From positions 3,712,001 through 3,776,000 of the forward strand of contig OZ220732.1 in NCBI GenBank assembly GCA_965116905.1: 64,000 nt of DNA, in the 5' to 3' direction. This DNA is from Longimicrobiales bacterium. Its GTDB lineage: Bacteria > Gemmatimonadota > Gemmatimonadetes > Longimicrobiales > Gaopeijiaceae. The notes beneath the pieces are model-generated. The model saw nothing but the letters and a program-made list of their open reading frames with translations, ran no database searches and was not told the DNA's origin. Of the stretch, positions 24,951-38,979 are shown one piece after another (the stretch's first letter is position 1; each line of letters opens with the position of its first letter). A program made the position numbers and the translations under genes.

Positions 24951-26015
24951 ATGGCCTCCCAGGTGGCAGCCGAGTGGGCGCGGGCCCGCCCACACGGCGC
25001 GATCGCCACCACCGGCGGCACGGCCCTCGTACTGGGCGACCCCTCTCCCCACCTCCCCCGCGCACTGGAAGACACCGCGCGCACCGTCGCGCGCTGGCAC
25101 CGGCTGCCGTCTCCCGGCCAGCTCCACACACCCTGGCCACCGGCGGGCCCGTTCGGCGAGGTGTGGGTGCGCATGCCGCGCTCCTCGCTGGAGGCCGCCA
25201 TGCTCCTCCACGCCGCCGCGGCCCGCGTGGATCACGGCAGCCATGTCCACCTCTACGGCGCGAACAACGAGGGCATCCGGTCGGCGGCGCGGCACTTCCC
25301 GGACGGGACCGACGAGCCCCGCGCAGCCCTGGTCAAGCGCCGCTGCCGCGTGCTCACCGCGGTGAAGACCGCGCCGCCGCCCCGCGCGGACGGCCTCGAC
25401 AGCTGGCGGCTCGAGGCACCCGTGGACTGGGGGACCGGTGCGCGCGACTGGACCTTCTACCCGGGCGTCTTCTCGTACGGCCGCCTCGATCCGGCGACGG
25501 CCCTGCTCATCGAGACCCTGCCCGAGGTGCCCGCCGGATCGCGCATCCTGGACTTCGGCGCGGGCACCGGACCCGTCGGCGCGGCCGTCCTGGAACGTGC
25601 AGGCGCGGGCACCGAGGTCCACCTGCTGGAACCCGACGTCATCTCCCTGGCCGCGGCCGCGCGGAATGTTCCGGGAGCGGCGCCGGCCCCGGGAAGCGGC
25701 CTCTCGGCGGTCGCGGGCCCGTTCGACCTGATCGTCACCAATCCGCCGATCCACGTCGGCAACGCCCAGAGCCTGCACACGGTCGAAGCTCTTGCGCAGG
25801 GCGCCCCGGCCGCGCTCGCCAGCGGTGGTACCCTCCTGCTCGTCGCACAGCGCCGGCTTCCGCTTCCCCGCGTGCTGAGGGAGTCCTTTCGAGACGTACG
25901 CGCTATCGCCGACAAGGGGCAGTTTCGCGTCTGGCGGGCAGCGGCCGGAGGACGGCGATCTCGCGCCCGCACCGTCAGCGCGCGTCGTGGACGATCCTCC
26001 CGTCCACCACGGTGA
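24951..26015 (+). CDS. Class I SAM methyltransferase, RsmC-like
   Basis: PGVFSYGRLDPATALL, LDFGAGTG and IVTNPPIH motifs. Confidence 0.8.
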   Translation: MASQVAAEWARARPHGAIATTGGTALVLGDPSPHLPRALEDTARTVARWHRLPSPGQLHTPWPPAGPFGEVWVRMPRSSLEAAMLLHAAAARVDHGSHVHLYGANNEGIRSAARHFPDGTDEPRAALVKRRCRVLTAVKTAPPPRADGLDSWRLEAPVDWGTGARDWTFYPGVFSYGRLDPATALLIETLPEVPAGSRILDFGAGTGPVGAAVLERAGAGTEVHLLEPDVISLAAAARNVPGAAPAPGSGLSAVAGPFDLIVTNPPIHVGNAQSLHTVEALAQGAPAALASGGTLLLVAQRRLPLPRVLRESFRDVRAIADKGQFRVWRAAAGGRRSRARTVSARRGRSSRPPR

Positions 26016-27635
26016 CCACCGCCGTCAGCCCGGGGATCCCGGCGTCGGGCACGGCCAGGTAGTCGTCCGACAGTACCGTCAGGTCGGCGGCCATCCCCGG
26101 GGCCAGGGTCCCCCGCTCCGATTCCGCAAACACCTGGTACGCGTATCCCGCCGTCATGGCGCGGAGCGCGTCCATGCGATCGACCGATTGCTCGGCCCCC
26201 ATGATCCCGGCCGAAATGGTGCCGCGGGTCGCGAAGTGGTAGAGCACGGCGAACGGGTTGTGGGGAATCACAGGCGAGTCGGTCCCCAGCGACACCGGGA
26301 TCTGCTCGTCGATGTAGCGGCGCAGGGGGGTCGTCAGCGCCGCGCGCAGGGCGCCCCAGTAGTCGACCAGGCTCGGGGCCGCCACGTAGAGGTGATGCTG
26401 TGCGGTGACCGTGAGGCCCAGCCGCCGCACCCGCTCGAACTGGTCGGGCGCGGGGATGAAGCCGTGCTCGATCGTCCAGCGCCGGTGCGCGATGGGGATG
26501 GCGGCGTCCGCCTGTTCGTACGCGTCCAGAACGAGATCGATGGCGGCATCGCCCACCGCGTGCGTCGCGACGCGCCAGCCCAGCGCGTTGAGCTCCCGGA
26601 CGGTCCCGTGGAACAGCTCGGTCGGGATCGTCTGCAGTCCATGGAACGTGCCTCCCCTTCCCCACGGCTCCTCGTAGGGTTCCCGCATCCATCCTCCCTC
26701 GAAGCCCCCGTCGACCCCCAGCTTGACGCCTCCCACCGAAAGGAGACCGGCGGTGAAGTCCGGTGGCACACCCCACGACGCCACAACCGTCCGCACCTCG
26801 TCCACCGGGGTGCCGCGCAGGCGGAACAGGAACTCCACGCGAAGGGTGAGCCGGTCCTCCTCGGCCAACCGCCGCAACATGGTGAACTGCTCCGGGGTGC
26901 CTCCCGGTATCCGCAGCGCGGTCGCGCCCAGGGCATTCATCACGGCCTGCGTTTCGAGGAAGCGCGCCGCGGGGTCCTCCGCGGCCCGCGGCGGCAGCGT
27001 CACCGGGTCCTTGGCGCGATCCACCAGCTCCCCGTTCAAACGACCGTCGTCGTAGCGTCCGATGCGCCCGCCCGGCGGCGACTCGGCGGCCTCGTCGATG
27101 CCCCAGCGCGACAACGCGGCCGAATTGAGGATGAACTCGTGACCGCCGCGCACGACCACGACCGGGTGATCGGGTGCCGCGCGGTCGAGGTCGTCGCGCA
27201 GCGGCAGCCGCTGTTCCGCCAGCTGCCCCTCGTGCCAGTTGCTGTTGGTGACCACGAGTTCGCCGGGTTCGGTCGCGGCGGCCCGGGCCGCGATGGCGTC
27301 CAGCAGGTCGGCCATGGTGCGCACACCCGACAGGTCCACCCCGGGCCCGCCGCCCAGCGCGTGGAAGTGGTTGTCCGTCAGGCCGGGGACCACGCTGCGG
27401 CCGTCCAGGTCGAGTATGCGCGTGTCGGGGCCCCGCAGCCGCAGCACGTCGGCGTCCGAGCCCGCCGCTTCCACCCGTCCCGCGCGCACCGCCAGCGCCG
27501 CCACATCGCCCAGGCCGGGGTCGACGGTGACGATCCGGCCGTTGTGGAGGATCAGGTCGGCGGGGGGCGGCTCCGGCGAGCAGCTGCTCGCGACCGCAAG
27601 CAGCGCGGCCGCGGCCAGTGCGCGCGGGATGCCGG

Positions 27636-27639
<4 letters not shown>
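25975..27639 (-). CDS. Amidohydrolase family 3 (YtcJ-like) lipoprotein
   Basis: PGLTDNHFH, HAVGD, TIEH, LGTDSP and GTLAPGMAADLTVL; the TTG start overlaps the pstB stop. Confidence 0.88.
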
Positions 27640-28413
<774 letters not shown>

Positions 28414-28421
<8 letters not shown>

Positions 28422-29175
28422 AACGTCCCTCGATATAGCCGGTCGTGCGCTCGTCCCGGACCTTGCCCCCGAAGAGATCCTCGGTGACGCCGATGTCGAC
28501 CATCTCTCCCATCAGGAAGAAGGCCGTGCGGTCGGCCAGCCGGCGCGCCTGCTGCACCAGATTCGTCACCAGCACGATCGTCAGCTCGGAGCGAAGTTCC
28601 CGGAGAACATCCTCGATCCGCATGGTGGTCACCGGATCGACCGCGATCGAGAACTCGTCCAGGAGCAGCAACTCCGGTTCCTGCGACAGCGCGCGCGCGA
28701 TCGTGAGCCGCTGCTGCTGGCCGCCGGAGAGCAGGCTCCCCAGCGAGTCCAGCCGGTCCTTGACCTCGTCCCACAGCGCTGCGCGGGTCAGGCAGCGCTC
28801 GACCACTTCGTCCAGGTCGGCCTTCTTGCGCACCCCCCGCAGCCGCGGCGAGAAGGCCACGTTGTCGTACACGGTCAAGGGCAGGCCCACGGGCAGCGGG
28901 AACACGACCCCGATCCTGCTGCGCAGCGCGTACACGTTGCGCCAGTCGTGGATGTCCTTCCCGTTGAGACGGATGCTCCCGCGCACGTCCATCCCCGGAT
29001 TGAAGCCGTCCATCCGGTTGAGCGCGCGCAGGAACGATGTCTTGCCGCTGTTGGCCGGGCCGATGATCCCGAAGATTTCGTGCCTGAAAATGTCCAGCGA
29101 AATGTCCCGCAGCGCGGGTTGGCCGTCGTAGCTGATGGTCAGGTCCCGCACCTCGATGATGGGGGGCTCTACCAT
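28414..29175 (-). CDS. pstB: Phosphate ABC transporter ATP-binding protein (second copy)
   Basis: GPANSGKT, LSGGQQQRL, LLDEFSIAVDP and YIEGRFG. Confidence 0.9.
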
Positions 29176-30038
29176 TTCTTCAGTCCTCGCAGGTACACAC
29201 GGAACCCGATCGAGATGGCGTTCATCAACAGCACGATCGAAATCAGCACCAGGGCCACGCCGAACGGAATCTCCTCGGGCACGCCGGTCTGCTGGGTCGC
29301 GATGTAGTACAGATGGTAGGACATGGCCATCGTCTGATCGAACACGCTACCGGGAAGGAACGCCACGAACGCGGCGGCTCCCGTGAACATGATCGGCGCC
29401 GTCTCGCCGGCGGTCCGCGAAACCTCGAGGATCACACCCGTGAGGATCCCGCTGATGGAGTTGGGGAGAACGACCTTGCGAATCGTCTGCCAGCGGGTCG
29501 CCCCCATGTTCCAGCAGGCCTCCCTGAACGCCTGAGGTACCGCCTGGAGCGACTCGCGGGTAGCCACGATGACGACCGGCAGCGTCATCACGGCCAGGGT
29601 CAGGCTGGCCGCGAGGATCGAGGCCCCGATGTTGAAAAACAGTACGAAGGCGCCGACACCGAAGAGCGCGTGCACGATCGACGGGACGCCGGCAAGGTTG
29701 ATGATCGCCAGATTGATGGTCCGGGTCAGCAGGTTGTCCGGCGCGTACTCGCTGAGGTAGAGGGCCGCGGCCACGCCCACGGGCACCGACGCCAGCAGCG
29801 CCACCGCCACCAGCCATACGGTCCCCACCAGTGCCGGGAAGATTCCGCCGGCCGTCATCCCGTCCCGCGGCGCCGAGAAGAGGAACTCCCAGGAGATCGC
29901 CGGCCCTCCCTTCACCACCAGGGTGCCGATGATGATCAGCACCGGGATCACCAGGGTCACGGTCATCAGGAAGAAAACGGCCCGGGCCACGTTCTGGGTC
30001 CGGTAGCTTCGCCTGTTGAGCGTCGTGGCCGTGAACAT
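29169..30038 (-). CDS. pstA: Phosphate ABC transporter permease
   Basis: LAGVPSIV and SRTAGETAP motifs; operon position. Confidence 0.92.
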   Translation of the reverse strand: MFTATTLNRRSYRTQNVARAVFFLMTVTLVIPVLIIIGTLVVKGGPAISWEFLFSAPRDGMTAGGIFPALVGTVWLVAVALLASVPVGVAAALYLSEYAPDNLLTRTINLAIINLAGVPSIVHALFGVGAFVLFFNIGASILAASLTLAVMTLPVVIVATRESLQAVPQAFREACWNMGATRWQTIRKVVLPNSISGILTGVILEVSRTAGETAPIMFTGAAAFVAFLPGSVFDQTMAMSYHLYYIATQQTGVPEEIPFGVALVLISIVLLMNAISIGFRVYLRGLKKW

Positions 30039-30041
30039 GGG

Positions 30042-30992
30042 CTATTTCTTCCGTATGCCGCGTACCACGACGTCCGCGGTGAGGTTGATGATGAACGTGA
30101 CCAGGAACAGGAAGATGCCCAGGGTGAAGAGTGCACCGTAGTGGTCGGATCCGTACACCGTGTCCCCGAGTTCGGAGGCGATCGTCGCCGTGAGGGCGCG
30201 CACGGAATCGAACGGGCTCGTGGGCAGGTTGATCGCATGGCCCGACGCCATCAGCACGGCCATCGTCTCCCCGAATCCCCTTCCGACGCCGAGCAGCACG
30301 GCCGCCAACAGCCCGTTCTTGCTGGCCGGGATCACGACCCTGCGAATCACCTCCCACCGGGTCGCGCCCAGGGCCTCCGCGGCCTCCCGGTAGGTGTCCG
30401 GAACGGCCTTCAGCGCGTCCTCCGCGATGGTCGTCATGATCGGCGCCGCCATCAGTCCCAGGATGAGTCCGGCGTTCAGCACGCTCAGCCCCACCGGCAC
30501 ATCGAACGTCTCGATGATCAGCGGATTCATGATCGACATGCCGACGAATCCCCAAACCACCGAGGGAATCGCGGCGAGCATTTCCACCAGGATCTTGAGT
30601 GCCTCGCGAGTCTTGCCCGTCGCGAATTCCGCGATGTAGAGCGCGGCGCCCAGCGAAAGGGGCACGGAAAAGAGCATCGCGAAACCCGTGACGCTCGCCG
30701 TGCCCACGATGAGCGCCAGGGCGCCATAGGTAGGGTTGTTGGAGGTGGGACGCCACGCGATCGACGTGAAGAACTCACCCGGATTGAGCGAGCCGAGGAC
30801 GAAGTCCAGCCCCTCCCTGGTGACGAATACGAAGATCCCGAGGATGAAGATGATGGCGGAGATGCCACCCACGAAGACGAGCGCCTGGGCCACGCGGTCC
30901 ACGTACCACGCGAGATCGCGACGATCCATCGCGCCACTCGGATCCCCTGCGGACGGCCCCGGCGCGGTCGCGGTGTAGTCCGGAGGCGTCAC
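30042..30992 (-). CDS. pstC: Phosphate ABC transporter permease
   Basis: LAAIPSVVWG and GRGFGETMAV motifs. Confidence 0.92.
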   Translation of the reverse strand: MTPPDYTATAPGPSAGDPSGAMDRRDLAWYVDRVAQALVFVGGISAIIFILGIFVFVTREGLDFVLGSLNPGEFFTSIAWRPTSNNPTYGALALIVGTASVTGFAMLFSVPLSLGAALYIAEFATGKTREALKILVEMLAAIPSVVWGFVGMSIMNPLIIETFDVPVGLSVLNAGLILGLMAAPIMTTIAEDALKAVPDTYREAAEALGATRWEVIRRVVIPASKNGLLAAVLLGVGRGFGETMAVLMASGHAINLPTSPFDSVRALTATIASELGDTVYGSDHYGALFTLGIFLFLVTFIINLTADVVVRGIRKK

Positions 30993-32065
30993 TCGTCGTC
31001 CCGAACCCCCATGGTCGTCATCAGGCCGCGAATTCGCCGCATGAGTTCCCGGTACAGTTCCTCGACGTCGGGTTCGCCGCCGGTCTCAGCCACGTCCAGA
31101 TCCCACCGGAGAAGGGCTGTCTGGTGGGGGGCGGAACAATGGCTGGCGGGATCCACCCCCAGCCCCACGATCACGTGATAGTGGCGTGCCGCGCCGAGCG
31201 CATCGGCGAAGGCCGCGGGTGCGTCGTCGGCCGCCAACACGATCCCCCGGCGCCGGCAGAACCCTTGCAGCGCCGGAGAGAACCCGGCGGCCGCCTCGAG
31301 CCCCGCCGAGCCGGCGCGGCCGGCGTGCGGATAGCTCTCCACAAACGCCAGCTCCGCCATCTTGCTGACCATGGCGTTGTCCGCGTCCAGGAAGAGCATC
31401 CGGTATTGCTTTTCGCGTTTCCGCTCGCCGGTAACCGCGAACAGCGTCTGCTGGCAGATGTTTTCCGCCTGTTCCGCCGTCCGCTGCATGAGCCGAAAGA
31501 CCAACAGGGCTCCGAACAGGTCGCGCGCCGGACGAGGGTCGGAGTCCGCTGCCGCGCTCAGGACTTCGAAGGCGTAGGGGTAGACCGCCGCACTCTGTGC
31601 CGCGAACCCGCGCGAAACCCGGGCCGCGTCCGGATCACCCTCCAGGAACCCGTCCAGCGCGGCTCGCAACGCCCGCCGCGAATGCTCGCTCATCAGCTGA
31701 ATGTTGCTCAGCACTGCATCGGGCAGGGGGGACTCGATCTGCCTCGCCACCCGACAGATCGCGACCGAGTAGTCGCCCAGACGCTCCATCGCGACGGACA
31801 GCCGCAACACGCCCGAGACGAACCGCAGGTGACTGCCGCTGGGAAGGTGCCGGGCCACGAAAAGGTGGCACAGGTGATCGATCTCGCGGGTGGACTGATT
31901 GACCGCCCGGTCCTTGATCAGGGTTTCGTTGGCCAGGCGCCGGTCCAGGTCGAGGACGGCCTGCACTCCGTGCCGCAGGTTATGCAGGACCTCCTCTCCG
32001 ACATCGCGCAGCCGCTTGCGGATCGCGACGAGGTCGGCCTCCAGACGCTGGTCGTAGAGGCTCAA
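30989..32065 (-). CDS. phoU: PhoU fused to a C-terminal LMW-PTP/ArsC-like domain
   Basis: PhoU helical repeats (P-GSHLRF, MERLGDY, AENIC) followed by MLFLDADNAMVSKMAE...SAG. Confidence 0.8.
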   Translation of the reverse strand: MSLYDQRLEADLVAIRKRLRDVGEEVLHNLRHGVQAVLDLDRRLANETLIKDRAVNQSTREIDHLCHLFVARHLPSGSHLRFVSGVLRLSVAMERLGDYSVAICRVARQIESPLPDAVLSNIQLMSEHSRRALRAALDGFLEGDPDAARVSRGFAAQSAAVYPYAFEVLSAAADSDPRPARDLFGALLVFRLMQRTAEQAENICQQTLFAVTGERKREKQYRMLFLDADNAMVSKMAELAFVESYPHAGRAGSAGLEAAAGFSPALQGFCRRRGIVLAADDAPAAFADALGAARHYHVIVGLGVDPASHCSAPHQTALLRWDLDVAETGGEPDVEELYRELMRRIRGLMTTMGVRDDE

Positions 32066-32931
32066 GCGCACTCCGTTTCCGTATGCGGTGCGTACCCGCG
32101 CTCCAGGATCACGCACTGACCCTCCCGTGAGAGGATCCAGTCCATGTACTCCCTGACCGCACCCTGCGGCTGGCCGGCCGTGTACATGAAGAGCGGGCGA
32201 GCGATGGGATAGCTGCCGTCGACGGCCGTGGCGATGGTGGGCACCACGCAGTCACCGCCCTCGTCCGCCACGATACACGGCATCCGGACGTGGTCCGTGG
32301 CATAGGCGAGCCCACTGTATCCGATGGCGCAGGGTGTATTCTCCACGAGGTCGACCACGTCCTTCGAGCCGTGCATGTCCCGGGACCCGAGCTTGTACTC
32401 CGTGTCGTCGCCGAGCACCGTCTCCTTGAAGTAGACGTAGGTGCCCGAGTTGTTCTGACGGCTTACCAGGACGATTTCGTCCGAATCGCAGCCCGGCACG
32501 GCAACGCCCAGATCCGACCATGTCGTGGCTGTGCCGCCCTCGCCGTACACGGCCGTGAGCTGCTCCAGGCTCATGCTTTCGATGGGGTTGTCGGCGTGCA
32601 GATAGACCGCGAGCGCGTCATACCCGACGATGTGCTCGATGGGCTCCACGCCGTTCCCCCGCGCCGCCTCGAATTCCGCTGCACGCATCTGGCGGGACGA
32701 GTTCGCGATGTCGACGGTGCCGTTGATCATCGCCGAGATGCCGGTTCCGGATCCTCCGCCCGTGACCGCCACGGCGACATTCGGGTTGACCGCGCTGTAC
32801 GCTTCCGCCCACGCCTGGGCCACGTTCAGCAGGGTGTCCGAGCCCTTGTTCTGGATCATGGCCCGCTGCGCCCTGTCGGCGCCGCCGCACGCGAGGACTG
32901 CCACCGCGGCAAGGGGGATGAGTCTCTTCAT
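32062..32931 (-). CDS. pstS: Phosphate ABC transporter substrate-binding lipoprotein
   Basis: KGSDT, GGGSGTG, SRQNNSGT and YPIARPLFMY; lipobox VLAC. Confidence 0.93.
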   Translation of the reverse strand: MKRLIPLAAVAVLACGGADRAQRAMIQNKGSDTLLNVAQAWAEAYSAVNPNVAVAVTGGGSGTGISAMINGTVDIANSSRQMRAAEFEAARGNGVEPIEHIVGYDALAVYLHADNPIESMSLEQLTAVYGEGGTATTWSDLGVAVPGCDSDEIVLVSRQNNSGTYVYFKETVLGDDTEYKLGSRDMHGSKDVVDLVENTPCAIGYSGLAYATDHVRMPCIVADEGGDCVVPTIATAVDGSYPIARPLFMYTAGQPQGAVREYMDWILSREGQCVILERGYAPHTETECA

Positions 32932-32985: not shown

Positions 32986-33035
32986 TGTCACGACCAGGTC
33001 ACCGGCCAGTGACAGCATTGTACCAATGGTGTCCG
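32986..33035. promoter_or_regulatory. Pho-box-like 11-bp-phased repeats upstream of pstS
   Basis: tgtcac (32986), ggtcac (32997), agtgac (33008), tgtacc (33019) and tgtccg (33030), each 11 bp apart. Confidence 0.55.
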
Positions 33036-33051
33036 GGTCAGTAGTAAAGGG

Positions 33052-34119
33052 TCAGTAGTACAGATAGGTCTGCAGCTTGAAGGAAACCTCCCGTGGGCCC
33101 GATGCGGGGTCGTAGATGTCCAGATTCGCGCCGATGCGGTTCTTCCCGGCCACGTACACGAACAGCCCGGGGGTCAGGAGCAGTCCACCGTCGTCGGCAA
33201 GGCCCCGGTCGGGATCTCCCCAGCTCACGCGCGCCATGGGCTCCACCGCCTCGAAGCTGGCGCTCTCCAGCGGCACATACCGGCTCACGATCACCTGGCC
33301 GGTCAGAAAGCTCGGTGTCTCGGCCCCTTCCAACCGCTGCAATCGCCAGTTCGCACCACCGATCAAGCCCACCTGCAGGTGCGTCCCGCTGCGAAAGCGG
33401 CCGATCTCGAGGTCGGCGCCGAAGGCCGTGGCCGATTCGCCCTCGCCGTGCAGCCCGACGAAGTCGTGCCGGGACACGTTGGCCGAGGCCGACACATTGT
33501 CCGCCAGGCGCAGCGTCACGCGTCCCGCAAGCGACTTGCCCGAGTTCTCGTCCGCGCCCGAAGTGCCGGTTCCGTTCGTCAGGGTAGCCATATAGGACAG
33601 CCTGTCGCCGATCGAACCGTCGGCCTTGAAGCCGATGTCCCGGTCGGAGTAGGCGAGCTTCTCCGTGAAGCGGCTGAGCGCGCACGTGCCGCCCGGCCCC
33701 GCGCACCCGCTGAAGCCGTTGATCCGTCCGGTCCTTTCCACCACCACGATGTCGGTGGAACTGTTGAGCTCGAAGATGTCGAAGGCCCGCTTGAACTGAC
33801 CCACCGAGAACCGAAACCCCTGGCTCACGTTGAGGCGAAAATACGCGTCCTTGAGGTCCAGTTCGCCTCCTCCGAAATCGGGCTGAACGCGCGCATCCAG
33901 CAGGTCCGAGACACCGATGTCCAGTGTGAACCTGGCCCGCCGGGTGAAGAAATCGGTCGACTTTCCGCCTTCCGCCGAGCTTGTCGCAAACTGGGAATGG
34001 AGCCGCCCGCCGAAGCGCACCTGGGCGCTGCGGGCGGAAATCTCGACCTGCGCCAGCCCGGTCTCGGCCGCACCGGCGGCGAGGAGAACAGCCGTGGCAA
34101 GCACACGAAATCTGGTCAC
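33052..34119 (-). CDS. Phosphate-selective porin (OprO/OprP-like)
   Basis: Signal peptide, FFTRRAR, LKDAY, VGQFK and RDIG motifs, aromatic C-terminus; directly upstream of pstS. Confidence 0.8.
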   Translation of the reverse strand: MTRFRVLATAVLLAAGAAETGLAQVEISARSAQVRFGGRLHSQFATSSAEGGKSTDFFTRRARFTLDIGVSDLLDARVQPDFGGGELDLKDAYFRLNVSQGFRFSVGQFKRAFDIFELNSSTDIVVVERTGRINGFSGCAGPGGTCALSRFTEKLAYSDRDIGFKADGSIGDRLSYMATLTNGTGTSGADENSGKSLAGRVTLRLADNVSASANVSRHDFVGLHGEGESATAFGADLEIGRFRSGTHLQVGLIGGANWRLQRLEGAETPSFLTGQVIVSRYVPLESASFEAVEPMARVSWGDPDRGLADDGGLLLTPGLFVYVAGKNRIGANLDIYDPASGPREVSFKLQTYLYY

Positions 34120-34177: not shown

Positions 34178-34216
34178 TGTAACGAAAGGGTCACAGAGTC
34201 GTCGCCATACGGTCAC
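34178..34216. promoter_or_regulatory. Pho-box-like 11-bp-phased repeats upstream of the porin
   Basis: tgtaac (34178), ggtcac (34189), cgtcgc (34200) and ggtcac (34211). Confidence 0.6.
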
Positions 34217-34273
34217 CACGCAGCCGATTCCCTGACGTAGGGGTAGGGGTCACGGCCCGCTACCCGGAGGGCG

Positions 34274-35581
34274 CTACCCGGAGGGAAGAGCAGGCTCCTC
34301 TGCTCCCCCGGTCGTGTCACCGCCGACCGCACGCTTCAGCACTTCCTGGATGTCCAGCCCCAGGACCGACGCCAGGCCCTCCATCGTGCCGTAGGCCCCC
34401 TTGACGCGCTGGTTCAACGCGTTGGACACGCCCTCGCCCTGGCCCCCGTCCATGACCACCACGCGATCGATGTCTACCCCCTCCACCGCGCCCACCGCGA
34501 TCTCCAGCAACTCGGGGAGCTTCTCGGCAATGAACACCGCGAACGCGGCTTCGCCACCGGCCCGCACTTCCCCGTAGAGGCGCCGCAGCACTTCGACCTG
34601 CGCCTTCCCGCGTTCGAGGATCGGAGCCGCCTCCGCCTCGGCCTGCGCGAACGCCGCCATCTTCTTTGCCTTGGCCGGTTCCACGATGTCGGCGAGCAGC
34701 CTCTGCTCCTCACGCTCCACACGCTTCATCTCGAGAATCCTCTCGGCCTCGACCTCGGCTTCCTGGGCCTTGACCCGCGCGATCTTCTCGGCGGTCTCCC
34801 CTTCGCGGTCGAGTTCGGCCTGGCGTACCCGCAGCGCGTTTTTCGCCTCGGCCACCTTGATCGCCGCGGCCGCCTCCCGCACCTCCGCGCGCCTGCTGGC
34901 CTCGGCCTGGGCCTCGCGCGTGTCCGCCCGCTTCCGCGCTTCCGCAATCTCCGCCTGGCGAATCGCCTCGGCGGACTTCTCCCGTCCGATTGCAGCCAGG
35001 TATCCGCGCTCGTCGCTGACGTTCTGGATCTTGAGCACGTCCAGGTGGAAGCCCAGCGAGGCCAGATCCTCGCCCGCGTCCTCGGACAGCGCCTTGGCGA
35101 ACCCAAGCCGGTCCTCGTTGACCGCTTCGGGCGTCAGCGTCGCGAGCACGCCGCGCAGGTTGCCGGTCAGGGTGTCCTGGGCGAGAGCCTTGATCTCGTC
35201 CTCGGTCTTTCCGAGCAACCGCTCGACGGCGTTGTTGAAGACCCACTCGGGCTCTGAGGCGATCTTGACGTTGGCGATGGCCTCGACGTTCAGCGGGATA
35301 TTGCCCTTCGAAAAGGCGTTCCGCACCGACACCTCGATGGGAATGGTCTCGAGGTTCATGTGCTGAACCGTTTCGATGATGGGCACACGGAAGACGCGGC
35401 CTCCGGAGATCGACCGGTAGCCGACGCGCTGACCGTCGGTGAGCAGCCGATTGCGCCCCGTGAGCACCGCCGCCCGGTTCGGCGGCGAGATCACGATCAG
35501 GGTCTTGATCGTCGCGACCAGCACGACAATCACCAGCACCAGCACCACGCCCGCTACGAGGGCGCCCATTGAAGTAAACAC
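34274..35581 (-). CDS. Flotillin/SPFH family protein
   Basis: N-terminal transmembrane segment, SPFH domain (AVERLLGK, GNLRGVLATLT) and an AE-rich coiled coil. Confidence 0.9.
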   Translation of the reverse strand: MFTSMGALVAGVVLVLVIVVLVATIKTLIVISPPNRAAVLTGRNRLLTDGQRVGYRSISGGRVFRVPIIETVQHMNLETIPIEVSVRNAFSKGNIPLNVEAIANVKIASEPEWVFNNAVERLLGKTEDEIKALAQDTLTGNLRGVLATLTPEAVNEDRLGFAKALSEDAGEDLASLGFHLDVLKIQNVSDERGYLAAIGREKSAEAIRQAEIAEARKRADTREAQAEASRRAEVREAAAAIKVAEAKNALRVRQAELDREGETAEKIARVKAQEAEVEAERILEMKRVEREEQRLLADIVEPAKAKKMAAFAQAEAEAAPILERGKAQVEVLRRLYGEVRAGGEAAFAVFIAEKLPELLEIAVGAVEGVDIDRVVVMDGGQGEGVSNALNQRVKGAYGTMEGLASVLGLDIQEVLKRAVGGDTTGGAEEPALPSG

Positions 35582-38310: not shown

Positions 38311-38979
38311 CTACACGGCTTCCGGGAGCCGCTTCCCCGCCTCACGGGCGAGCGACATGGTTCGGATGGCCGAGAGCAGTTCAGTCCTTGATGCCTCCAT
38401 GGACCCGGTCAGGCGCCGGTCGACTTCCGTCAGGCGCTGGCCGACCCCGTTGATGGACTCCGTCAGGCGCTGCTCCACCCCGTTGATGGACTCCGTCAGG
38501 CGCTGCTCCACCCCGGTGATGGACTCCGTCAGGCGCTTGTCGACCCCGTTGACGGACTCCGTCAGGCGCTGCTCCACTCCGGTGATGGACTCCGTCAGGC
38601 GCTGCTCCACCCCGGTGACGGACTCCGTCTGGCGCTTGTCCACCCCGTTGATGGACTCCGTCAGACGCTGCTCCACCCCGGTGATGGACTCCGTCAGACG
38701 CTGCTCCACCCCGGTGATGGACTCCGTCAGACGCTGCTCGACCCCGGTGACCTTCTCCGTCAACCGCACTTCGACCCGGTCGATCCGCGTGTCCAGCCTC
38801 TGGATCCCCTCCGCCAACCGCTTCCTGGTGTCGCTGCGCAGCGCTCCCACTTCGCTCCTGATTTCATCGCGAATGTCGTCGCGCAGGTTGCTGGTCGCCC
38901 GTGCCACGATCCGCCAAACGGCCGCCACCGCCAGAATCAATCCCGCGACCGCCGACACCGCCACCCATGGCTCGCTCAT
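38311..38979 (-). CDS. Membrane-anchored coiled-coil protein with 11-aa repeats
   Basis: Purine-rich RBS, N-terminal transmembrane helix, then ten copies resembling SITGVEQRLTE. Confidence 0.75.
   Translation of the reverse strand: MSEPWVAVSAVAGLILAVAAVWRIVARATSNLRDDIRDEIRSEVGALRSDTRKRLAEGIQRLDTRIDRVEVRLTEKVTGVEQRLTESITGVEQRLTESITGVEQRLTESINGVDKRQTESVTGVEQRLTESITGVEQRLTESVNGVDKRLTESITGVEQRLTESINGVEQRLTESINGVGQRLTEVDRRLTGSMEASRTELLSAIRTMSLAREAGKRLPEAV
38425..38754 (-). repeat. 10 x 33-bp coding tandem repeat
   Basis: Repeated ggactccgtcaggcgctgctccaccccggtgat-like units. Confidence 0.95.

Follow-up and report, generated by a model that had tools for sequence, protein, structure and literature searches.

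A 64,000-nucleotide stretch of the genome of a Longimicrobiales bacterium (assembly GCA_965116905.1, contig OZ220732.1, positions 3,712,001 to 3,776,000; hereafter the window) carries a variant phosphate-uptake (pst) operon in which phoU is fused to a second, catalytically dead domain. Our analysis confirms that the encoded 358-residue protein consists of a PhoU domain followed by a domain of the thioredoxin-type arsenate reductase (ArsC) kind. The family it represents is real, conserved and apparently unstudied; we regard it as a variant of PhoU/Pst, not as a wholly new system. We hypothesize, with a probability of about one half, that the fusion protein is a dedicated PhoU brake of its own lopsided pump, and that the dead domain serves as a docking surface, not as an enzyme or a ligand sensor.

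Architecture of the fusion protein

The fusion gene starts with a TTG codon overlapping the stop codon of pstS (TTGA), and its own stop codon overlaps the GTG of pstC. A start codon (TTG, GTG or ATG) occupies the same alignment column in 77 of 80 related genome loci (43 close and 37 distant), which were kept from at least 515 confirmed matches. A 375-residue version of the open reading frame (ORF), beginning at GTG 32116, was rejected, as it overlaps pstS and its start is not conserved. An artefact or chance read-through was likewise rejected: one continuous ORF of similar length recurs across the related loci. It is truncated in loci L036 and L048.

The PhoU match spans residues 6–215 in a profile scan. 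The two PF01895 repeats form a six-helix bundle in the model of the fusion, which Foldseek matches to canonical PhoU 4q25 with a TMt of 0.93 (0.92–0.94 across 4q25, 1t72, 2i0m and 1sum). The full-length model has a predicted local distance difference test (pLDDT) value of 90.8 and a predicted template modelling (pTM) score of 0.73; its Foldseek matches are PhoU and ArsC. Canonical PhoU and the fusion share the two-repeat bundle, the acidic motif of repeat 1 (D52, N56 and E94-R95-x-G97-D98 in the window protein) and a place in a pst operon. They differ in the 136-residue ArsC-fold tail, which canonical PhoU lacks, in the TIGR02135 score of the fusion (106.4 bits, under the 130.25 cut-off; the genome's canonical PhoU reaches 206) and in the acidic motif of repeat 2, which is eroded in the window's lineage. 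Gene order differs as well. Canonical phoU comes last in its operon, whereas the fusion gene either lies between pstS and pstC, in the order (porin)-pstS-fusion-pstC-pstA-pstB1-pstB2 (clade A), or stands first in the operon (clade B). In clade B the acidic motifs of both repeats are intact.

Fold and ancestry of the tail

Taken alone, the window's tail (M223–E358) matched no LMWPc or ArsC model in single-sequence Pfam and NCBIfam scans. A profile of the family matches arsenate reductases over positions 222–350 (1y1l, E 4.3e-11), and a tail-only profile places nine ArsC-type sequences on top (3t38, E 2.4e-11; 1y1l, E 1.9e-10), with other low-molecular-weight (LMW) phosphatases behind them at E 1e-5 or worse. 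TIGR02691 is matched by 27 of 48 tail rows at E ≤ 0.01. The AlphaFold model of the tail (pLDDT 88.2) aligns with ArsC 1jf8 with a Z score of 16.3 and a root-mean-square deviation of 2.6 Å over 129 residues. The original prediction, made from the sequence alone, had placed a degenerate LMW protein tyrosine phosphatase (LMW-PTP)/ArsC-fold domain behind PhoU inside a pst operon; profiles, fold and gene context agree with it, and the structural check that it proposed returns an ArsC fold from both the AlphaFold tail model and Foldseek. The double label was right as to the fold, but it can be refined: the nearest relatives are thioredoxin-type ArsC proteins, not tyrosine phosphatases, and the donor of the tail belonged to this arsenate reductase branch.

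With thioredoxin-coupled ArsC (TIGR02691; 1jf8, 1jl3, 3t38, 1y1l) the tail shares the fold, the P-loop register with its Asn and Ser, the S-A-G motif and a late Trp. It differs in having Asp for Cys10, Val for Arg16 and Gly for Cys82, in the absence of the Asp105-Pro motif, and in its location behind PhoU instead of in an ars operon. LMW protein tyrosine/arginine phosphatases (PF01451; PtpA, YwlE, Wzb) have the same fold (Z 13–15), but their profile matches are weaker than those of ArsC, and the tail contains neither C-x5-R nor D-P-Y. The LMW-PTP fold also occurs as a component of a large assembly, in trypanosome mt-SAF26 (6sga FW; Z 13–15 to the tail), a non-catalytic protein.

The ratio of nonsynonymous to synonymous substitution rates (dN/dS) of the tail ranges from 0.09 to 0.49 in 22 pairs, compared with 0.02–0.30 for the PhoU domain. 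Since it stays below 0.5 in every pair, the tail is maintained by selection, more loosely than the PhoU domain. Conservation of the tail in relatives, on which the original prediction depended, is thus borne out by these ratios and by the 80 loci. Its invariant residues are mostly core positions (L224, F225, A237, P313, W321), and clade A retains the fold residues and a P313-[FY]-x-T-x4-W321 segment without the catalytic ones.

The prevalence of core positions would also suit a tail with a purely intramolecular task, stabilizing or dimerizing a PhoU with a decayed second repeat and touching no other subunit. The loss of repeat-2 acidic residues in the window's lineage points the same way, and the pTM of the full-length model is compatible with a fixed domain arrangement. 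In clade B, however, the tail coexists with intact acidic motifs in both repeats, so that it must predate the decay of repeat 2; moreover, ordinary PhoU folds without any tail. We consider this explanation rather unlikely.

Loss of the catalytic residues

According to the accessible text of PMC9807832, ArsC chemistry requires Cys10, Asn13, Arg16, Cys82, Cys89 and Asp105. The tail is in gapless register with the C-x5-R-S loop of ArsC (D227 = Cys10, N230 = Asn13, V233 = Arg16, S234 = Ser17), upholding the predicted column-by-column alignment in which Cys is replaced with Asp and Arg with Val. The Cys10 column holds Asp in 80 of 80 loci. Among 150 representatives (the best 150 at 50% identity) it holds D in 122, E in 11, G in 5, S in 3, T in 2, A, N and C in 1 each and a gap in 4; the single Cys-keeping representative, P0276, has no Arg. 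Arg is found in the Arg16 column of 0/43 close loci, 7/37 distant loci and 7/150 representatives, the other residues being mostly Leu, Ala, Val or Thr. The Asn13 column is occupied by His in 34 of the 43 close loci and by Asn in 32 of the 37 distant ones; the P-loop Ser is kept in 29 of the 37 distant loci.

Further along, G303 of the window protein stands in the Cys82 column and C310 in the Cys89 column, where Cys recurs in 6/43 close and 0/37 distant loci. The general-acid motif of Asp105, W-x3-D-P, was not found in the window protein or clade A, and there is no D-P-Y. The S-A-G and late W-x-x-D noticed in the original prediction are both present (S253-A254-G255, W321-x-x-D324), but the second does not represent the general acid. 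The ArsC motif is W-x-x-x-D-P and D324 is unconserved, so the reading of W-x-x-D as a catalytic acid was rejected. Clade B, counted in 47 metagenome loci of the 80 returned, has D (37) or G (10) at the nucleophile position, keeps Arg in 23 and W-x3-D-P in 42. The survey of P-loops that had been proposed therefore yields a uniform Asp at the 80 loci and no C-x5-R in any relative examined, be it these loci, the 47 of clade B or the 150 representatives, which argues for a non-enzymatic role.

An active tail, whether a phosphatase with an Asp nucleophile or a residual arsenate reductase, was rejected because the catalytic residues are replaced; we consider it extremely improbable. The invariance of the Asp, the D-x5-R-S loop combined with D-P in some clade-B members and the position of C310 speak for it, and a Cys-to-Asp mutant of PTP1B is weakly active. 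Set against this, equivalents of Arg16 and Asp105 are absent from the window protein, its Cys82 column is Gly, and C310 is as rare as stated above.

The old active site might instead be a cytoplasmic sensor of phosphate, arsenate or a phosphorylated partner, switching PhoU on; the original prediction had likewise proposed a pseudophosphatase sensing phosphate or arsenate. Loop length, Asn and Ser are largely kept, the two residues as counted above for the distant loci, and the retention of Arg and W-x3-D-P in clade B makes its Arg-keeping members the best case. The Gly that replaces Asp in 10 of the 47 clade-B loci would open the cradle, and 7 of these keep C-R-S; phospho-binding pseudophosphatases with a Cys-to-Gly change, such as STYX, exist. 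However, Asp or Glu at the nucleophile position (133/150) should repel an anion, the close loci have no Arg and mostly His for Asn, and both Arg and D-P are missing from the window protein. Catalytic degeneracy stands, the case for sensing is weak given that Arg occurs in none of the 43 close loci, and we rate the sensor as unlikely. The tail would more likely dock than sense phosphate or arsenate.

Clade-B loci L107, L109–L111 and L115–L117 combine Gly at the nucleophile position with intact N-x-C-R-S and W-x3-D-P. Their proteins are the most promising candidates for genuine binding of anions or phosphopeptides.

Other LMWPc proteins of the window's genome keep C-x5-R: a stand-alone LMW-PTP (L081:1417–2064, minus strand) and a protein in which LMWPc follows what we take to be a domain resembling Sua5/TsaC (L082:1459–2541, minus strand). 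A PF01451 search of this genome found no thioredoxin-type ArsC.

Operon and asymmetric ATPase pair

The features of the operon are collected in Table 1. The gene pstC follows the fusion in 80/80 loci and pstS precedes it in 76/80, the other four starting near a contig end. A longer pstS ORF from 33018 would run over the repeat array upstream. Across phyla the transporter subunits are roughly 55–80% identical and the fusion 35–43%. PstS, PstC, PstA and PstB are homologous to E. coli PstSCAB, and both systems have R-x3-E in both permeases. Arg220 and Arg237 of the E. coli permease phosphate site define the roles of these residues (PMC12976172, accessible part), and the motifs of the window permeases would correspond to them by position.

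Table 1. Features of the fusion operon and its surroundings (positions in the window)
Feature	Position	Strand	Remarks
phoU fused to catalytically dead ArsC-type domain	30989..32065	-	358 amino acids, TTG start
PhoU domain, residues 1–215, two helical repeats	31421..32065	-	PF01895 E 4e-17 in two stretches; Foldseek 4q25
ArsC/LMW-PTP-fold pseudoenzyme domain, residues 222–358	30992..31402	-	Profiles, AlphaFold fold match, dN/dS
Degenerate P-loop D227-x2-N230-x2-V233-S234 (Cys to Asp, Arg to Val)	31364..31387	-	
pstS, phosphate-binding lipoprotein	32062..32931	-	TIGR02136 above cut-off; likely start ATG 32931
pstC, permease, R-x3-E phosphate-site motif	30042..30992	-	TIGR02138 above cut-off
pstA, permease, R-x3-E motif	29169..30038	-	TIGR00974 above cut-off
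pstB1, variant Walker A, without Q-loop Gln and H-loop His, intact LSGGQ and Walker B Glu	28414..29175	-	
pstB2, intact Walker A/B, Q-loop and H-loop; signature LSLEE	27636..28421	-	
Phosphate-selective porin O/P family gene	33052..34119	-	PF07396 E 1.2e-8; heads cluster in close relatives
Four GTnAC-like half-sites, 11-bp period, upstream of pstS	32987..33024	.	Pho-box-like
Four GTnAC-like half-sites, 11-bp period, upstream of porin	34179..34216	.	Pho-box-like

PstB1 has Pro in place of the Q-loop Gln (73/73) and Asn in place of the H-loop His (70/70 complete sequences), with LSGGQ intact (70/70). PstB2 retains Walker A, Q-loop and H-loop and carries an [LI]SLE signature in 69/69. All 73 PstB1 and 70 PstB2 proteins found at the 80 loci are of this asymmetric type, and clade B shows the same asymmetry (27 PstB1, 24 PstB2). 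To an ATP site of an ATP-binding cassette (ABC) protein, one subunit contributes Walker A/B and the Q- and H-loops, and its partner the signature (PMC7756269, accessible part). Since the site is composite, all PstB1 and PstB2 defects fall on one composite site, and the pair is predicted to have one crippled ATP site.

Enterococcus faecalis also has two adjacent pstB genes, both of whose products keep Walker A and LSGGQ as well as the H-loop according to the available text of PMC12096839; the defects of the window pair, unlike these, are complementary, and one dead composite site is predicted. A likeness in motif pattern is found in degenerate-site ABC exporters (TAP, CFTR, MRP1, Pdr5), where one ATPase domain has a changed signature and the other altered H-loop or Walker motifs; the Pdr5 signature LNVEQ (PMC7756269, accessible part) resembles LSLEE/LQLEQ. 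Those proteins are exporters or channels, most of which lose the Walker B Glu, whereas the window system is a binding-protein importer whose PstB1 keeps this Glu and loses the Q-loop Gln and H-loop His. An importer of this kind with a predicted degenerate site is unusual, in that PMC7756269, in its accessible part, treats such sites in exporters.

Pho-box-like arrays and the canonical cluster

The four-unit arrays in front of the porin gene and pstS are, we presume from the GTnAC consensus and from their position, PhoB sites (Pho boxes). A generic repeat finder missed the 11-bp arrays. The window's genome contains three four-unit GTnAC arrays at the 11-bp period, two of them in the fusion cluster. 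Counting triple half-sites in the fetched loci gives 115 at spacing 11 versus 0, 1, 0 and 3 at spacings 9, 10, 12 and 13; almost all of the spacing-11 triples immediately precede the operon or phoB/phoR. Four-unit arrays occur in the genome at other spacings too (2 at 9, 3 at 15, 1 at 16), so the weight of the 11-bp arrays rests on position and conservation, not on count. The association of the fusion with an asymmetric PstB pair and phased repeats, put forward in the original prediction, is in line with both the motif counts and these arrays.

The third array (G000:C1:117744) lies outside the window, upstream of a gene for about 1000 amino acids that resembles a TonB-dependent receptor and is a candidate member of the Pho regulon.

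The genome also possesses a canonical phoB-phoR-pstSCAB-phoU cluster (L179; G000:C1:1451800–1459200). In its only PstB the H-loop His is replaced with Tyr, in its PstA a conserved Glu with Ala, and no 11-bp array was found in the cluster. From these residues the cluster looks transport-impaired; it may be a signalling relic, with the variant operon as the pump that works.

A proposed brake dedicated to its own pump

In the mechanism that we favour, PhoB would turn the operon on in phosphate starvation, as the arrays before porin and pstS suggest, and the PstB1/PstB2 heterodimer would hydrolyse ATP at one site and import phosphate. Once phosphate is plentiful, the helical PhoU domain would bind the ATPase pair and slow uptake. 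This step is modelled on E. coli PhoU, which contacts PstB and PhoR (PMC5775613), and on pneumococcal PhoU2, which negatively regulates Pst2 transporter function (PMC4913102), each as given in the accessible part of the source. The Asp in the Cys position would fill the anion cradle from within, and the tail would form a second contact tying the fusion PhoU to its own pump, apart from the genome's canonical PhoU. Phosphate sensing by PhoU and its restraint of Pst are themselves still argued over, a conformational signal being set against other cues (PMC5775613 and PMC12976172, accessible parts).

Co-occurrence was followed in 301 Gemmatimonadota genomes; they are related and not independent, and the counts are to be read as patterns, not statistics. 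Matches of 50–61 bits in the search for fused tails were treated as ordinary ArsC/LMWPc genes without individual checks. The fused tail occurs in 26 of the 301 and the asymmetric PstB1 in 41, all 26 included.

Several observations weigh against a dedicated brake. Fifteen of the 41 pump genomes have lost the whole fusion gene, in at least three losses, and the asymmetric motifs of the pump are all kept there. No patch of PstB is relaxed consistently over five loss groups. In 20 of the 22 pairs the rate of evolution is higher in the tail than in the PhoU domain. The P-[FY]-x-T segment characterizes clade A alone and shares positions with residues that possibly belong to the fold core. Pho-box-like arrays, present in 36 of the 43 close fusion loci, are found in 3 of the 15 loss loci, which fits a signalling role too, and a PhoR match was obtained in 20 of 25 fusion genomes.

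An obligate coupling of fusion and asymmetric pump was rejected on account of the pump-only genomes. In these pstS abuts pstC, and no fusion was found elsewhere in them; the transporter tree, built without 27 near-identical loci and those whose genes are incomplete, places them within clade A. When transporter residues were scanned for relaxation after fusion loss, changes at any one position were confined to at most three of the five loss groups. The loss loci (L164–L178) have no phoU in the operon and no porin match within about 3 kb upstream; 11 of the 15 genomes have no PhoU match at all, and 13 keep PhoR.

Alternatively, the chief role of the fusion could be that of a signalling adaptor, passing on the conformation of the pump to PhoR as happens in E. 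coli, with the tail as its PhoR-contact domain; we find this quite improbable. It is true that phoB and/or phoR adjoin the operon in L087, L105, L114, L129, L142 and L144, that the fusion is the sole TIGR02135 match in 8 of the 25 fusion genomes, and that gene loss coincides with fewer arrays. However, the PhoR query had no match in 5 of the 25 (G245, G080, G291, G192 and G300). Two of these, the near-complete G245 and G080 (99% and 98% complete), keep the fusion with no PhoB match and with only long, unrelated-looking kinases for PhoR; in G291 a diverged PhoR may be present, and the regulators of G192 and G300 show low identity. The window's genome, moreover, has its canonical phoU in the phoB-phoR-pstSCAB cluster. 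It is the persistence of the fusion in G245 and G080, together with that of PhoR in most loss genomes, that directs our hypothesis of a dedicated brake towards the pump.

A bolder extension of it, which we consider doubtful, is that a captured detoxifying enzyme has become a self-plugged or ligand-gated switch clamping the crippled ATP site of a heterodimeric, one-site phosphate importer, giving PhoR-independent feedback on uptake. If so, the gradation within the family, from clade B with Arg and D-P to clade A without them, would mark the passage from a phosphate/arsenate sensor to a pure docking module. The family offers a natural experiment, as PhoU is joined to a phosphate-cradle domain in graded states of decay; the two ATP sites of the linked pump are genetically distinguishable, and close relatives serve as natural knock-outs of the fusion.

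Distribution and history of the family

The 80 loci stem from Gemmatimonadota, Acidobacteriota, Planctomycetota and Gammaproteobacteria (Pseudomonadota), and some fusion proteins of clade B are assigned by name to Verrucomicrobiota and Deltaproteobacteria. The family is large, full-length fusions making up the majority of the best 150 clusters at 50% identity. The pairing of PhoU with LMWPc is already visible in Pfam annotations, and 14 clusters among 30 ESM Atlas matches carry both families, under automatic names only. Some members are automatically named tyrosine phosphatase or arsenate reductase, names that their residues contradict.

No publication describing a PhoU-ArsC fusion or an asymmetric PstB pair was found in a search that left most subscription journals and all supplements outside, nor did a literature search for ArsC-like pseudophosphatases return a description of either. 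The earlier claim of an undescribed system holds as far as this literature goes, but the operon remains a variant of PhoU/Pst, and its pump persists after gene loss.

In a tree of 50 tail rows, all 43 fused tails stand apart from the 7 intact ArsC sequences (100/95), and clade A (100/99) is nested in a clade-B grade; the outgroup is small. This topology fits one fusion followed by stepwise decay. The mixture of phyla on the transporter tree suggests that the operon has been transferred horizontally.

Intact thioredoxin-type arsC genes adjoin unfused phoU in several pst operons (L156:5791–7408, L159:705–1076 and L163:6691–7107), the order in L156 being arsC-phoU-arsC. It is plausible that such an arrangement was a precursor of the fusion.

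Neighbouring features

Downstream, an Amidohydrolase_3 gene (25975–27639, minus strand) overlaps the stop codon of pstB2; it is placed there only in some close Longimicrobiales relatives. An SPFH/Band 7 (flotillin-like) gene upstream of the porin gene (34274–35581, minus strand) is present in most close relatives and not in distant loci. In the region at 38357–38900 (minus strand), the frame leading into 38311 opens with a tandem repeat of 11 residues, with apolipoprotein-like Pfam matches below cut-off. Direct duplications of 14 nucleotides, in adjacent copies, mark the ends of the porin gene (33035–33062) and of the SPFH gene (34258–34285), so that the stop codon is repeated.

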